A stretch of DNA of 63,617 bases, filler included, from Thraustochytrium aureum (taxonomy: Eukaryota), in the NCBI GenBank assembly GCA_012862495.1. It is 7 parts of 6 records of this genome, joined end to end, with 100 filler letters (N's around TTAATTAATTAA, not from the genome) between each part and the next. Parts side by side here need not be neighbours in the genome. Positions count along the whole stretch, not along the records: positions 26,324 to 37,742 come from BLSG01000250.1; 6 more parts are not named here. One strand, given 5' to 3'. Below are positions 30,630 to 37,232 of the stretch, piece by piece. The stretch's first letter is position 1. Every line of letters begins with the position of its first letter. The notes beneath the pieces are model-generated. The model saw only the letters and a list, made by a program, of their open reading frames with translations, did not search any database and was not told the origin of the DNA. Made by a program: the position numbers and the translations under genes.

Positions 30630-31388
30630 AAGCTACTGTTCGAGTACAAGGCGGCCGAGTTTTCACTGGCCCCGCTGCCGAACGCCGAGCAGCTCCGCCT
30701 CATCGCCGACTTTATCGAGGAGAAGCCGCTGCGCCTCGTCGACCTCGACATGGCCAACTATGCGTCGGACCGCAACATGCCGCCCGCTGCGCTCGGCAAG
30801 GACGGGTTTTGGACCTGGCACTACCGGGTTGCCAAAGTGCAGGACTTGTACGAGTCGCTCATCAACTGCCACCTGGACGCGAACTTTGCCGACGAGGGGG
30901 CTCTCCTCGCAGACCAGACGTTGCAGGCTTGGTGGGCGGCCATGTACGTGCACGTCCCGGCTCTGCAGCGCACCACAGGCGCATGGGCGGACCCAGTTCT
31001 CTCCCGCGTGGGCCTCGTCAACGTCCTCAAGGTGTTGTTCACTTGGTTGAGCTGGGTGCACGAGGACGTGGGCCACAGTGCAGCCGCATATGTCTACAAC
31101 CCGGTCCACACCCCAATGGCTGTCCCAGCGGACGGCCGCGGTGTGCCGTTCAAGATGGTTTCCTTCAATGCTGCAGCGTACCGCGGCTTCGTGTTCCTCA
31201 ACCGCGCCAAGCTCCTCGACGCCGCGCCTTCGTTCTGGTTTGACGACTCGGCCAGCGACCGCCAGTGCTTTACAGCCTTCCAGGGTGCGCTGGCAGCCCT
31301 GGGGTCCTCCGACCCGGCATTCGCCAACTGCGACGACCGCGGCTTTTACTCGTGCGTGGACCGCGTCGAAACCGGCGTCTCCAGCTGA
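30630..31388 (+). CDS. Lipoxygenase-like protein, C-terminal half; 5' part in gap (possible ATG at 29804)
   Basis: ALLADQTLQAWW (cf. DxELQAWW), SRVGLVNVLKVLFTWLSWVHEDVGH (cf. TIIFTASAQHAAVN), YNPVHTP, C-terminus VETGVSS* (cf. IPNSISI). Confidence 0.72.
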   Translation, partial: KLLFEYKAAEFSLAPLPNAEQLRLIADFIEEKPLRLVDLDMANYASDRNMPPAALGKDGFWTWHYRVAKVQDLYESLINCHLDANFADEGALLADQTLQAWWAAMYVHVPALQRTTGAWADPVLSRVGLVNVLKVLFTWLSWVHEDVGHSAAAYVYNPVHTPMAVPADGRGVPFKMVSFNAAAYRGFVFLNRAKLLDAAPSFWFDDSASDRQCFTAFQGALAALGSSDPAFANCDDRGFYSCVDRVETGVSS

Positions 31389-32013: not shown

Positions 32014-35000
32014 ATGGCGCCCGCAGGGCGGTTCAAAGGCGCTGCTCACAGGCTCCCTGAAGAGGACGGGACATTTGATGTTGTCGTGGCTGGGGCTGGG
32101 CCTGCAGGAGCCACCACGGCGTACTATCTTGCGCAGTACTCGCGGAACGTCTACGCGGGCACGCCGCTGCGCATCGGGCTGCTAGACAAGGCCGCATTCC
32201 CACGGGACAAGTACTGCGGTGATGCATGGTGCTTTAGCGCCCTTGAAATCATGGAAGACATGGGCGTGCTGCAAGAGCTTGAACGGGACGGTCTCGTCTG
32301 CAATTGCTTGTGCGGCGGGTTTGTGTCTCCGGCGGGCCACAGCTTCATCGCGAACGACCGCAACACGCCGCCCGAGAGCAAAAACATGACCACGCGCTGC
32401 TATGCGATCAAGCGCAAAATTGCAGACGAGCGAATCGCGCGGTGTGCGAGCCGGCAGGTTGGCGTCGAGCTCGTTGAGAACGCGATGGTGGAGACGGCAG
32501 TCCTGGACGACCTGGCCGGCGTCTGGACGGTCACGTGCGGGGACGGGCGCGTATTTCGCGCCCGTATGCTCGTTGCCGCCGACGGGGCGGCCTCTGCGAT
32601 TGGGCGGTCCTTGGGTCTCGTCACGAGCCCGCCTCAGGCCGTCGCTGGCCGAAGGTACGTCAAAGCCGGCACTCACAACTTCAAGGCGGACGGAGTTCTC
32701 TTGTACCCCGACTACACTCTGCCCGGCTACGCGGCCCTGTTCCGCCACTATGACGACTCGATCGACCTTGGGCTCTACTTGCTCCCAGGCGGCTCCGCCA
32801 AAGACAGCGACATCCAAGACATCTACGAGAACAAGCTCATGGCGGACCCCTTCGTGAGCCGCGCGCTCGGCCCCAACGCGCAGTTCAGCGAGCGCCTTAA
32901 GGTGGCCTCGCTGCGCCTCGGCGGGGAGCCGCGATCCTGGGGCAACCACATCGTGCTCGTCGGAGACGCTGCCGGCCAGATCGATCCCCTCACTGGCGAG
33001 GGGATCCACACGGGAATGATCGGTGGCAAGCTTGCCGCCGAGACGATCGCCGAGCTATTCCGCGAGGGCGACTTCTCCGACGCCGCGTGCAAGCGATACC
33101 ACTCCAGCTGGATGCGCGAGTTCGGCCGTGACTTTGCACTCAGTGCAGGAGCAGGCAAAGTTCTGCGCCGTGCGCCGTTCCTCATGGACGCCGTCCCCAT
33201 GGCCTCGATCGCCAAAGGGGGCAAGGCCGGAAGCGACTTTTTTGGAGACTTTGGCGCTGTGATGACGGGAGCGCTCCCGAAGAGCACCTTCTTGCGACCA
33301 AGCGTAGCGTGGCCGCTTGCTGTGGAGTCACTCAAGCAGTTTGTCAACCAGTATCTGCTAAAGTCCGAGCGCCGCTACTACACCGACCCTGCCCAGCTCG
33401 TCGCGGCCGAGGTCAAACGCCAGACCAGCTGGGACGCGCAGTGTCTGATCGACCCCACTGCGCCGGTTGGGAAGCCAGCGGAAGACGAAGGCGAAGGCCA
33501 GCTCGCGGAGGCCCACAAGTATGCTGACGACCGTCTGCCGCCGGCTCTCGTGCTCTATGGCACCGAGTATGGGTTTTCCCACGAGCTAGCCTTGAGCCTC
33601 TGCGAGCGTTTGGGGGAACGGGGCTCGTGCTCGCCGCGCTGCCTCAACATCGCGCACCACGAGCTCGTAAACTGGGATGAGGAAGACTTGCTCTTTGTTG
33701 TGTGCTCGACCGCGGGCGATGGCGATCCTCCCGTTGCCGCACAGCCGTTTTTCGAGGCGCTTCGAAACGGGGCCATGGCCGGGCGGCTCCGGGGCCTGCG
33801 GTACGCCGTTCTTGCGCCCGGGGACCGAGCATACCCCAAGTTTGCGGCGGCCGGCAAGGAGCTCGGGCGCTTGCTCGAGGGTGCCGGGGCGACCGCAGCG
33901 CTGCTGCTCGAGACTCTTGACACGGAGGACGGCCTCAAGGCGGTGCCGTGGTTCACGGCCTGTTGCAACCTGGATCCGCTGCCGAAGCGCGACCTCGGAC
34001 AGGAAGACTACCTCCGCCAGGTCCTGCGTGACAACGCGGTGCTTCTTGCGCCCACAAAGGGCGCCACGCGCGCTGCGCCATTCATGGCAACGCTCTCTGC
34101 GCGTCGCTTGCTGACATCGCTGGACCCTGCGGACCCTGACCCGAAGGAGACGTGGCATATCGAAATCGATTTGACGGACGACCTCGACGGCTTGGTAGAA
34201 TACCTGCCGGGCGACGCTCTGGGCGTTCAGCCGCTCAACTGTGAGCAGGAAGTAGATGCCATCTTGCAGCTTCTCAGGGTGCCTCCCGACGCTCGCGTGT
34301 CAGCCGAGAGCGCGCGCGAGCTCCTCCTCCGCAGCGACCTCCGCCTCTCCCTGAGCGAACTCAAAGTGGACAAGGACGAGCACGTGATTGATGTTCTAGA
34401 GCGTGACGCATCTGCGCGCTCTCAAGGTCTGGACATCTTGTCCAGGCTCAAGCCGCTGCAGCCGCGCTACTATTCGATTGCCTCGTGCCCAACCAAAGAC
34501 GCCGGCTCAGTGCACTTGTGCGTGGCGGCAGTGCGGTATTCCCTCCGAGAGCGCGGGCGGAAAGGCGTTGCGTCGACGTTTCTTATCGACAGGGTCAAGA
34601 TCGGGGGGCAGATTCCGGTCTGGGTCCAACGGAATCCGTCTTTCAGGCCAAAGGCGCGCTCCGTGCTCATTGGGCCAGGGACGGGCCTCGCGCCATTTCG
34701 CTCATTCATTCGCAACATGCCCGAAAGCGAGACGATGCTCTTTTTCGGGTGCCGCAACGAGGCACGCGATTTTTTGTACCGCGAAGAGCTGCGCTCGTGG
34801 GCGGCGGACAGCGACAACCACGACCTGCGACTCGCCTTTTCGCGGGACACGGGATCCAAAGTGTACGTGCAGAACCGTCTCGCGGAGCCCGACGTGGCGG
34901 CCAAGGTTTGGGGGCTTTTGAGCCGTTCTGACGACCCCGCGCACGTTTTCATCTGTGGCGAGGGGTTCCGAATGGCAGGCGACGTGAAGGCGGCCCTGTT

Positions 35001-35100
35001 TGCGCTGGTCGTCGAGCACTCGAATGGCGCTGTGGCAGACGAGGAGGCGGCTGCGAAGTTTCTCGAGGGCCGGCTTCACCTCGACGTTTGGGTCTCCTAG
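32014..35100 (+). CDS. Fusion of geranylgeranyl-reductase-family FAD oxidoreductase and CPR/CysJ-type diflavin (FMN-FAD-NADPH) reductase
   Basis: N-terminal half: FDVVVAGAGPAG, FPRDKYCGDA, ADGA, GDAAGQIDPLTGEGIH. C-terminal half: LYGTEYG, STAGDGDPP, GDRAYPKF, PRYYSIAS, GVASTFL, IGPGTGLAPFRSF, FFGCRN, AFSRD, KVYVQ, FICG, DVWVS*. Single uninterrupted, gap-free ORF. Confidence 0.92.
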   Translation: MAPAGRFKGAAHRLPEEDGTFDVVVAGAGPAGATTAYYLAQYSRNVYAGTPLRIGLLDKAAFPRDKYCGDAWCFSALEIMEDMGVLQELERDGLVCNCLCGGFVSPAGHSFIANDRNTPPESKNMTTRCYAIKRKIADERIARCASRQVGVELVENAMVETAVLDDLAGVWTVTCGDGRVFRARMLVAADGAASAIGRSLGLVTSPPQAVAGRRYVKAGTHNFKADGVLLYPDYTLPGYAALFRHYDDSIDLGLYLLPGGSAKDSDIQDIYENKLMADPFVSRALGPNAQFSERLKVASLRLGGEPRSWGNHIVLVGDAAGQIDPLTGEGIHTGMIGGKLAAETIAELFREGDFSDAACKRYHSSWMREFGRDFALSAGAGKVLRRAPFLMDAVPMASIAKGGKAGSDFFGDFGAVMTGALPKSTFLRPSVAWPLAVESLKQFVNQYLLKSERRYYTDPAQLVAAEVKRQTSWDAQCLIDPTAPVGKPAEDEGEGQLAEAHKYADDRLPPALVLYGTEYGFSHELALSLCERLGERGSCSPRCLNIAHHELVNWDEEDLLFVVCSTAGDGDPPVAAQPFFEALRNGAMAGRLRGLRYAVLAPGDRAYPKFAAAGKELGRLLEGAGATAALLLETLDTEDGLKAVPWFTACCNLDPLPKRDLGQEDYLRQVLRDNAVLLAPTKGATRAAPFMATLSARRLLTSLDPADPDPKETWHIEIDLTDDLDGLVEYLPGDALGVQPLNCEQEVDAILQLLRVPPDARVSAESARELLLRSDLRLSLSELKVDKDEHVIDVLERDASARSQGLDILSRLKPLQPRYYSIASCPTKDAGSVHLCVAAVRYSLRERGRKGVASTFLIDRVKIGGQIPVWVQRNPSFRPKARSVLIGPGTGLAPFRSFIRNMPESETMLFFGCRNEARDFLYREELRSWAADSDNHDLRLAFSRDTGSKVYVQNRLAEPDVAAKVWGLLSRSDDPAHVFICGEGFRMAGDVKAALFALVVEHSNGAVADEEAAAKFLEGRLHLDVWVS

Positions 35101-35232: not shown

Positions 35233-36807
35233 CTATGTGGCGGTTACCTGCATGACGGGCGTCGGCACGGCTTCGCTGGCCTCGCTCGCCGACGCGGGCT
35301 GCGGGGCCTGACTTGCGCTGCCGCCCTCCTCGACTTGCTGGGCGTCGCTGCCGTCGCTAGCACGGTCAGAACCCGGCTCCACGTCTTCGCTCGGCAGGTG
35401 CGGGTGCGCCAGGTAGACCAGCGCAAAGGTTAACACTAACATGGCCACCGCAGTGCTTCCCACGGCAACGAGTTGATTGGTGCTCCACAGCGACTCGGCA
35501 ATGAGCGCGCCGATGGCACGCCCAATGAAATGGCACTGGAAATTGATCCCCGTGACAGTCGTGCGAAGGTCGGCGTCGACGAACCGGCCCACAACGGCGA
35601 TCTGGGACACCAGAAAGTACTCGCTCGGCGCAAACGCCAGGCTCGCAGACACGAGTCCTGCGGTGAGAGAAATGTGGCTCACTGCGGTAAAACAGGCCAG
35701 AATCACTGCCATCAACGCGCTCGAATAGTAGAGGCCGCGATAGATGCCAAACTTGTCTGCAAATAGGACGACGCTCCCCGAGCCGATGAGCTCGGAGACG
35801 CCGATTGCAACGCTCGCAGCGCCCATCTGCTCCGGGTTGAGGCCGTGCTCTTCAGCGGCCCAGTTTGCAAAGCCTATGAACAGCAGGTTGTTTGCGGCGT
35901 TGAAGCAGAGCGCAGAGCAGTTGAAGAGGAGAGGGCCCGGCGCTACCAGACAGCGCCAGTATCTCGACCTGGCGACCCGCCTCAGGGCACGTCGAGAAGC
36001 AGCAAAACGCCCCGCGGTGCGGTCTCCGCCGTTCTTCGGCGAGAGCGTACCGGCAGACTGCGCCGCGGCCACGTTGGCGCTCACACTCGCGCTCACGCTC
36101 GCGCTCGGCGCGACCTCATCCAGCTCGTCAGGGTCTTGTTCCGCGCCTCGGAAGGAGAAGCGCCCACTTCCGGACCGCGGCGTCGCGGCGATGTCCGGGA
36201 TCTCGATGGCTCCAGCTGGGTCTCGCGCGGCGCTCTTGGCGGCGCGTTCGTCTGGGTAGTCGAGGTAGATCTCCAGAACAAACAAAAACACGAGTCCAGA
36301 GGTGATGCCGAACGGGGCGCGCCATCCTACGTTGTTGTAGGCAACAGCCAGGATTGGGATCAGCACCAGGATCGAGAGCGCCCAGCCCGCTTCCGAGATG
36401 CCGGTGATCCATCCCGCCTTCTCTTGCGCGCTTGTGGCAACGAGCGTGGCCTGTGAAACGATCACATACACTGTGGCGGACAGCTGAAGAGCAACGCGCG
36501 AGCAGATGAGCCCTGCCAGCGTCGGCGGCGCCAGCATCGCTAAAGACGAGACGAAGAAGACGATGTACGACGTCACGCCCACCACCCGGTTGCCAAACTC
36601 GTCGCCAAGCGCGCTTAGGAAACCTCCCGGAATCCCTGCCAGTTCGCCAGCAGCAAGCACGAGTCCCATCTCATCTCGTGTGAGGTTCCAGTCCTCGGTG
36701 AGAAAGTTGATGAACGGGTACAGCATGCGCATCGACCCATACAAAAGGATTTTCGTTGGCAGCGTGCAGAGCATAAACCTCGACGGCCACTGCGTGGGAC
36801 ACCTCAT
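35233..36807 (-). CDS. Major facilitator superfamily transporter
   Basis: About 12 TM helices in two halves; motif-A-like LGDEFGNR and FADKFGIYR; GWRAPF; long central loop. Confidence 0.88.
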   Translation of the reverse strand: MRCPTQWPSRFMLCTLPTKILLYGSMRMLYPFINFLTEDWNLTRDEMGLVLAAGELAGIPGGFLSALGDEFGNRVVGVTSYIVFFVSSLAMLAPPTLAGLICSRVALQLSATVYVIVSQATLVATSAQEKAGWITGISEAGWALSILVLIPILAVAYNNVGWRAPFGITSGLVFLFVLEIYLDYPDERAAKSAARDPAGAIEIPDIAATPRSGSGRFSFRGAEQDPDELDEVAPSASVSASVSANVAAAQSAGTLSPKNGGDRTAGRFAASRRALRRVARSRYWRCLVAPGPLLFNCSALCFNAANNLLFIGFANWAAEEHGLNPEQMGAASVAIGVSELIGSGSVVLFADKFGIYRGLYYSSALMAVILACFTAVSHISLTAGLVSASLAFAPSEYFLVSQIAVVGRFVDADLRTTVTGINFQCHFIGRAIGALIAESLWSTNQLVAVGSTAVAMLVLTFALVYLAHPHLPSEDVEPGSDRASDGSDAQQVEEGGSASQAPQPASASEASEAVPTPVMQVTAT

Positions 36808-37232
36808 GGTTGTTGCTCCCGCTGCAACCTGCCCACCCACCTCACACCGTCAGCACAAACAGCAGTCCAACAGCGTCAGTAGCCACCACGTACACGAACA
36901 CGACCAGGATGCGCCCAGCGATCCCCGCAGCCATACGCACGTGCGCAGAGCCTCGGTCAACCAACCAACCCAGATTCCGCGACTGCCGCCAAAGCCGCTT
37001 CCCGCCGAACGAGCGAACGGCCGACTGCGCCAAGTTTGCCTGGCGAATGCCGCAGAACGCCGACGCGCGCAACGACAGAGCCCGTCCCTCGGAGCTCGCC
37101 GCGGGCCTCAATGCGCCTCTGCCGCGCCGCTCCAACCACCTTTCGCCCGCTCGAGGCTGACACGTTCTGGCATTGCTGCTCTTGATCAACAATCAATGAG
37201 AATTCTGAATCTGTTCTGCTGCCCCATTCGCA

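Follow-up and report, generated by a model that had tools for sequence, protein, structure and literature searches.

A conserved fusion of a geranylgeranyl-reductase-type domain with a RedA-like diflavin reductase in Thraustochytrium aureum: a candidate NADPH-fed sterol reductase

Does the long open reading frame (ORF) at positions 32014 to 35100 (+) of a 63,617-nucleotide stretch of Thraustochytrium aureum DNA (assembly GCA_012862495.1; hereafter, the window) encode a single enzyme, and what would such an enzyme do? The initial annotation described the ORF as a domain of the geranylgeranyl reductase (GGR) family fused to a complete diflavin reductase of the cytochrome P450 reductase (CPR) type. 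Our analysis supports a genuine fusion of a GGR-type flavin adenine dinucleotide (FAD) domain with a diflavin reductase whose closest stand-alone relatives appear to be RedA-like. With electrons from NADPH, the product may reduce an unactivated C=C bond in a sterol, probably one of the side chain, a reading to which we assign a probability of roughly 0.45.

The ORF runs without an internal stop codon from an ATG at 32014 to a TAG at 35100, which bears out the single frame of about 1028 amino acids (aa) that had been described. Undetermined bases (N) account for 9105 of the 63617 bases of the window, in many runs, and none lies within the ORF. A 1755-nt contig from the separate sequencing run X2 (33172-34926) spans the junction between the two halves unbroken. 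Among the differences listed from four runs, there are no insertions or deletions within the ORF, and 23 of the 31 ORF substitutions listed are synonymous with no stop codon among them; four further differences lie outside that list. That the fusion is an assembly chimera or a read-through across two adjacent genes, which the initial annotation had singled out as a point to check, now has next to no probability. The N-runs elsewhere in the window are the only sign of assembly trouble, and the protein collection searched does not contain the identical sequence; against these points stand 60 homologous fusions at full length, a bacterial copy that is 42% identical over its whole length, and the bridging X2 contig, and together they rule out such an artefact.

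The predicted protein has the domain order expected of the proposed fusion. Pfam models FAD_binding_3, Flavodoxin_1, FAD_binding_1, and NAD_binding_1 (aa 885-992) all score above their cut-offs, and the Pfam, NCBIfam, and structure matches agree on a GGR-plus-diflavin architecture. The GGR-superfamily FAD domain (32050-33369, +; aa 13-452), assigned from TIGR02032, structure, and trees to a clade with members named 'CMF receptor 1' (CMF, conditioned medium factor), carries GAGPAG (aa 27-32), RDKYCGDA (32203-32226, +; aa 64-71), which includes Cys68 at the position of the GGR active-site cysteine, YAALFRH (32728-32748, +; aa 239-245), and the FAD-binding motif GDAAGQIDPLTGEGIH (32962-33009, +; aa 317-332). 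A junction motif, T[SA][FW]xxxCL[IL]D (33424-33453, +), and an acidic linker delimited from the sequence (33454-33543, +; about aa 481-510) lead into a flavodoxin domain for flavin mononucleotide (FMN; 33550-33903, +; Flavodoxin_1, 73 bits, aa 513-630) and an FNR-like FAD/NADPH module (34039-35091, +) supported by Pfam and by the structural match 1ddg. Flavodoxin, FAD_binding_1, and NAD_binding_1 thus follow one another in diflavin order by both Pfam and structure matches. Every motif named in the initial annotation was recovered, including RYYSIAS (aa 818-824), GPGTGLAPF (887-895), AFSR (941-944), KVYVQ (949-953), ICG (980-982), and DVW (1024-1026). The Ser/Cys/Asp catalytic triad of diflavin reductases is intact (S821, C981, D1024), as are the C-terminal W1026 and the 2'-phosphate set S943/R944/K949. 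Roles for this Ser-Arg-Lys set and for the C-terminal Trp in diflavin reductases have been described (PMC2257935; this and the other papers are cited from passages of their text). An AlphaFold model of the fusion, built on an alignment of 61 sequences, has a mean predicted local distance difference test score (pLDDT) of 90. A predicted complex between the GGR half and the FMN domain, made without an alignment, scored 0.15 (mark 0.34), and matches in the ESM Atlas were to generic GGR and diflavin clusters only.

Fusions of this kind form a conserved family, with at least 60 clusters, that spans eukaryotes and bacteria. Searching proteins of 565-1799 aa with the N-terminal half, we obtained 71 homologues, 60 of which are at least 950 aa long and share the same domain set. 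Sterolibacterium denitrificans has two, SMB21208.1 and SMB26542.1, both annotated 'Conditioned medium factor receptor 1 (modular protein)'; SMB21208.1 is 42% identical to the query from end to end, the query having the shorter connecting domain. Other named carriers include Rhodocyclaceae metagenome-assembled genomes and KAH9260384.1. The latter (P0007) bears a chytrid label, yet falls within the query's branch, and its assembly is possibly mislabelled or contaminated; its proteins are, we presume, often labyrinthulomycete-like. The novelty claimed for the architecture holds in part: no paper found by our literature search, which did not reach most subscription papers, describes it or a characterised example, and none of the matches listed pairs geranylgeranyl reductase with Sterolibacterium, CmfB, or a diflavin or flavodoxin protein, yet the T. 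aureum protein is not a singleton. The S. denitrificans fusion accessions and names had no match in the supplementary literature files searched. The fusion is already in databases under automatic names, and it represents an uncharacterised family built from two modules of known kinds. Two distant GGR-family proteins, P0069 and P0070, are fused to other partners, a methyltransferase or, in P0070 (Ruegeria), a polyprenyl synthetase domain.

To which enzyme class does the N-terminal half belong? Of the domain models expected from the initial annotation, the three diflavin models exceed their cut-offs, whereas TIGR02032 scores 147.6 bits on aa 21-345, below its curated NCBIfam cut-off of 158.8; among seven clade members, four pass (171-187 bits) and three score 153-158. 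The top structural match is the archaeal DGGR 3oz2 (Z 33.4, root-mean-square deviation (rmsd) 3.0, 376 residues aligned), followed at lower scores by FixC (Z 31.4), SaGGR (29.2), the halogenase Bmp2 (28.9), and squalene epoxidase (24.5). By profile search, FixC and two halogenases come out slightly ahead of DGGR, so that sequence alone does not settle the identity of this half. The GGR models nevertheless reach 148 bits, against 57 or less for monooxygenase models, and the best-scoring equivalog is MenJ at 85 bits, with a cut-off of 700. All 60 full-length fusions have a Cys at the position of Cys68, which, placed by motif, matches Cys47 of SaGGR. The departure from the usual YxWxFP motif that had been pointed out extends to the whole clade: YxWxFP is absent from all 60 fusions and all 119 stand-alone relatives compared, and a YxALFRH-type motif takes its place in 57 and 118 of these, respectively, in the columns where outgroup GGRs keep YxWxFP. 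The motif WxWxIP, which marks flavin-dependent halogenases and is visible in the PltA alignment, is found in 0/60 fusions. Compared with archaeal DGGR/GGR (3oz2, 3atq), MenJ, and ChlP, the query has the fold (Z 33.4 and 29.2), the Cys, and the FAD motifs in common, but it is only about 20% identical to them, lies far below every equivalog cut-off, has replaced YxWxFP, and has its electron donor fused. Models, structure, and motifs together support the assignment of the N-terminal half as GGR-type, neither halogenase nor monooxygenase.

The C-terminal half, by comparison, is closer to other diflavin reductases than to the CPR first annotated. Among solved structures it is nearer to CysJ than to CPR (190 vs 161 bits), with 1ddg matching at Z 35.7 (rmsd 2.5, 335 residues), and the CysJ model TIGR01931 gives 276 bits, below its cut-off of 668. 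BLAST places a Dictyostelium protein well ahead of E. coli CysJ (280 vs 200 bits), and the nearest non-fused relatives are eukaryotic, many of them named 'NADPH oxidoreductase A-like', from dictyostelids, chlorophytes, red algae, molluscs, Branchiostoma, and Balamuthia. The closest stand-alone relatives therefore appear to be the RedA group, an assignment made from protein names and the 631-aa length of the Dictyostelium relative, D. discoideum RedA itself not being among the sequences compared. The FMN phosphate loop of the query is the RedA-type variant GTEYGF (33559-33579, +, within the flavodoxin domain; loop survey) and not the canonical S/T-x-T-G. A G[TS]E[YF]G loop is also present in 56 of the 60 fusions and in 65 of 91 further C-half matches, while 21 of the 91, the named ones bacterial, have the canonical loop and 5 match neither. 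In a FastTree phylogeny of the C-terminal half, built without a true CPR sequence, CysJ (Shimodaira-Hasegawa-type (SH) support 100), the RedA-like stand-alones (SH 94), and the eukaryote-type fusions (SH 100) form an open fork, with bacterial fusions beyond it and the query outside the CysJ branch.

The query and the stand-alone relatives named after RedA share the GTEYG loop and the DVW end, but Dictyostelium RedA stands alone and has an N-terminal hydrophobic segment (PMC2257935). A microsomal CPR-type N-terminal anchor is absent from the query, in which the reductase module is C-terminal and the N-terminus is not hydrophobic. The FMN-FAD-NADPH layout and catalytic residues are those of CysJ, CPR, P450BM3, and NOS, and the self-sufficient fusion logic is that of P450BM3 and NOS, but the acceptor in the query would be a flavin and not haem or cobalamin. 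RedA has been assumed to serve P450s, although in the passages at hand its acceptor was not demonstrated, and its loss stops Dictyostelium development at the mound stage (PMC2257935); a Dictyostelium P450 was driven with RedB in work in which RedA was not tried (PMC6524965). RedA-like stand-alones (P0343-P0433) have a SFD[AS]FL-type motif ahead of the FMN domain, with 61 of 62 rows filling the block, and it is repeated in some chlorophyte members. It is possibly a partner-docking helix; homology between it and the junction motif of the fusions was not shown, as 4 of 58 fusions scored above the 95th percentile of shuffles.

We propose that electrons would pass from NADPH to FAD, to FMN, and on to the catalytic FAD of the GGR half in single-electron steps within one polypeptide, and that a hydride would then pass from the catalytic FAD to the olefin. 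The current view of GGRs is that an NAD(P)H/ferredoxin system supplies their electrons by way of the conserved Cys (PMC6309074), and the diflavin half probably stands in for such a ferredoxin-type donor. The reaction is likely a reduction and not an oxygenation, and we put the chances that the substrate is a sterol at about even. A precedent is Bsr, a GGR-family enzyme that reduces the sterol C24 bond; it has in common with the query the superfamily, the active-site Cys, and the proposed type of reaction, sterol side-chain hydrogenation, but, as described in PMC12004948, it keeps YxWxFP, stands alone at about 370-380 aa (estimated from gene coordinates in Table S2), and occurs in bacteria only.

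Comparative evidence for the sterol reading comes from bacterial genomes. In the bacterial family of genome G001, the fusion is present in 6 of 301 genomes, all of them among the 9 whose steroid C25 hydroxylase-like (S25DH-like) genes reach at least 71% identity; none of the 292 genomes without such genes has it (Fisher p 9e-11). Genome G036 has four marker paralogues that are 70-82% identical, which is near the published range for S25DH1-4 (PMC6016249), and G002, from a second lineage, has the fusion together with S25DH-like genes at 72%. Sampling across the phylum gave the fusion in 1 of 401 genomes, the centre genome. The strongest local clue to a sterol substrate is the second fusion copy of G036 (L081:9246-12458), which is followed directly, on the same strand, by three delta-24 steroid desaturase paralogues. 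The first of them shows 39% and 30% identity with genes that agree at their starts with the published beta and alpha chains. Upstream of this copy are SnoaL, amidohydrolase, and SDR genes. The three paralogues (L081:12610-18023), two of which are 84% identical, resemble subunits of delta-24 steroid desaturase or limonene dehydrogenase and are candidates for acting on ergosterol- or brassicasterol-type side chains. L104 was also checked as a delta-24 desaturase subunit and is not one. The neighbourhoods of other fusions are mixed: some have SnoaL, DUF1295, MMPL, thiolase, acyl-CoA dehydrogenase, and CrtI-like genes, others narK/narG or hcp, and many give no match. In two genomes, at L097:8922-13785 and L098:7053-11901, the fusion is followed by a protein of 140-150 aa without a Pfam match, the two being 76% identical to each other, and then by a sulfotransferase. 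In the order of G002, S25DH-like genes at 68-74% identity occur in 7 of 301 genomes (G002, G346, G381, G467, G509, G535, and G566), all outside the family in which the C25 hydroxylase was described.

Several points weigh against a sterol-reducing role. It is a prediction from sequence, structure, and gene context, and FMN binding is itself predicted for a loop that is non-canonical. The p value of 9e-11 overstates the link because the six carriers, several titled Sterolibacterium, are probably close kin, and 3 of the 9 S25DH-positive genomes of that family have no fusion. In the order of G002, the fusion (4/301) and the S25DH-like genes (7/301) coincide only in G002 itself, with an overlap p of 0.09, or 1.0 without this centre genome; KstD-like genes, in 87 of 301 genomes and 3 of the 4 carriers, show no significant association (p 0.07). 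Bsr, which retains YxWxFP and which eukaryotes reportedly lack, is a precedent and not an orthologue. The clade has deeper members in an Asgard archaeon and in Paratrimastix, which to our knowledge make no sterols. DHCR24- and DHCR7-like genes are already present in Schizochytrium (PMC10174431), which would make a 24(25) role redundant in hosts of this kind. In extracts of stigmasterol-grown S. denitrificans the C22 bond was not reduced, and delta-24 is a needed intermediate in this organism (PMC11061730), so that neither bond is a likely target. The delta-24 desaturase does not accept ergosterol-, brassicasterol-, or fucosterol-type substrates (PMC11061730), and together these points leave the 25(27), 24(28), and ring-B bonds. 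Our guess, a doubtful one, is the 25(27) isopropenyl bond, with 24(28) and ring-B 7(8) as alternatives. In favour of the sterol reading, routes through 25(27)-olefins exist in Chlamydomonas and other green algae and in Acanthamoeba (PMC6278499, PMC6495176), whose wider groups, chlorophytes and amoebozoans, include stand-alone members of both halves. The passages cited from these two papers and from PMC8172173 and PMC2817430 name no 25(27) reductase. A proteome study of S. denitrificans, cited in PMC6016249, may bear on the substrate.

The substrates initially suggested, namely prenylquinone side chains, squalene or carotenoid intermediates, and oxylipins, found no specific support, and the comparative evidence leans toward sterols. 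A non-sterol isoprenoid or polyene, such as a prenylquinone side chain, polyprenol, or carotenoid-like lipid, reduced through the same electron path, is possible but unlikely. Characterised GGRs mostly act on linear prenyl chains (PMC12004948, PMC6309074), MenJ heads the equivalogs despite its low score, CrtI-like genes lie ahead of the fusion in L002 and L026, and the redA mutant builds up a chloroform-soluble yellow compound that absorbs at 400 nm, as an unreduced polyene might (PMC2257935). The Asgard and Paratrimastix members would also suit such a substrate. YxWxFP, which aligns linear prenyl chains, is gone throughout the clade, however, and it is steroid C25 hydroxylases that the bacterial distribution tracks in one family and sterol-desaturase paralogues that flank one copy.

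Two further readings would take the enzyme away from lipid hydrogenation, and we consider each improbable. An O2-using epoxidase, hydroxylase, or halogenase that draws its electrons from the diflavin half would resemble squalene epoxidase, which is fed by CPR (PMC2257935); the fold family is common to these enzymes, halogenases stand near the top by profile and by structure, and Schizochytrium is described as lacking a canonical squalene epoxidase (PMC10174431). Such an enzyme fits poorly with the invariant GGR cysteine, the missing WxWxIP, the margin between the GGR and monooxygenase models, and the lower structural score of squalene epoxidase relative to DGGR, and the steroid chemistry of the best-known carrier is oxygen-independent (PMC11061730, PMC6016249). 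We accordingly place the half with GGRs, and not among the monooxygenases and halogenases that the initial annotation had asked about. An electron-transfer or nitrogen-stress protein, either a FixC/ETF-QO-like quinone reductase or a nitrite or hydroxylamine detoxifier, is suggested by FixC, the top sequence match among solved structures and the second by fold, by the NarK-like transporters that flank the fusion in L006, L018, and L083, by nitrate reductase alpha genes nearby in L003 and L006, and by a hybrid cluster protein next to the fusion in L007. The nar context may be a single arrangement inherited by close kin, though; both G036 copies are without it, metagenomic loci beyond L018 show no nitrogen genes among their neighbours, and the conserved Cys and the model scores suit a GGR better.

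The origin of the fusion can be approached through its stand-alone relatives. Those of the N-terminal half number 593 (263-839 aa, E 1e-40 or better); among the 120 of these listed, the named hosts are Deltaproteobacteria, Binatia, and Myxococcota, and clade members are automatically named 'CMF receptor 1'. Twenty more distant stand-alones that were looked up include proteins from Tetraselmis, Chloroparvula, Clastostelium, Cavostelium, Willaertia, Apiculatamorpha, Digyalum, Paratrimastix, and one Asgard archaeon. The CmfB name is attached to the S. denitrificans fusions and to one Paratrimastix clade member; CmfB itself was not among the sequences compared. Dictyostelium CmfB has been described as a receptor, and we know of no enzyme activity for it. 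In an IQ-TREE phylogeny of 39 N-half sequences, with E. coli CbrA as the only characterised GGR, the query branch comprises seven fusions (support 100/99), of which the query and P0007 are the only known eukaryotic members. This branch joins 13 bacterial-type fused or stand-alone rows in one branch (96/93) that is nested among eukaryote-type stand-alones, with the YxWxFP-bearing GGRs outside. A 149-row FastTree agrees, and separate trees of the two halves give groupings that are alike by eye. The junction motif is present in 39 of 58 fusions, 67 of 113 bacterial-type stand-alones, and 0 of 11 eukaryote or Asgard stand-alones (from 62, 118, and 16 sequences, the remainder having no anchor), a distribution that fits a single fusion event, after which some bacteria lost the reductase half. 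A CmfB-like and a RedA-like gene, both eukaryotic, probably joined on a single occasion, and the product was then transferred to sterol-using bacteria. Chlorophytes and amoebozoans have stand-alone members of both halves, many eukaryotic ones of either half with N-terminal hydrophobic segments that the fusion lacks; that no single species was seen with both stand-alone genes counts against our reading.

The surroundings of the ORF indicate a eukaryotic host. Genes around it match ArfGAP, WD40, CRT-like, and ankyrin models in Pfam, and a convergent MFS transporter gene (35233-36921, -) contains, in run X3, a 65-nt skip (36827-36891) whose ends, read on the strand of the gene, are GT..AG. The GTG start listed for that gene, at 36840, therefore lies inside a likely intron. 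The fusion gene has a GC content at third codon positions of 0.77, compared with 0.67-0.76 in three neighbouring genes. No RNA run is on record as containing the sequence. Coverage by runs X2 and X3 follows the genes and ends in intergenic DNA, in which X1 carries on; with the splice-like skip in X3, this is a weak hint from which we guess that X2 and X3 are RNA from one study. Upstream, at 30669-31388 (+), is a C-terminal gene piece whose upstream part is N; by eye it resembles the C-terminus of a lipoxygenase, but it has no match in Pfam or the PDB, which leaves the oxylipin link unsupported.

Unactivated double bonds are the targets of GGRs, and assays of these enzymes usually rely on dithionite (PMC6309074). 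A soluble, NADPH-driven, single-chain GGR would be of practical use as a catalyst and would open the re-reduction of the GGR flavin to direct study. A further prediction from the fusion is that RedA has a partner and that proteins named 'CMF receptor' act as enzymes, and the fusion offers a cheap test of RedA function. Action on a 25(27)-sterol would fill a step that has no named enzyme in the cited passages. More speculatively, and with the odds well against it, the fusion may be a Rosetta stone for a widespread eukaryotic system of two genes: RedA would be the dedicated donor to CmfB-like GGRs, and the pair would be the sterol 25(27) reductase that finishes 24-beta-alkyl sterols in green algae and amoebae and that anaerobic sterol degraders took over. 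If so, these degraders would use it to repair side chains that resist their C25 hydroxylases, lipid reduction would be the role of Dictyostelium 'CMF receptor 1', and RedA would not be a P450 reductase.

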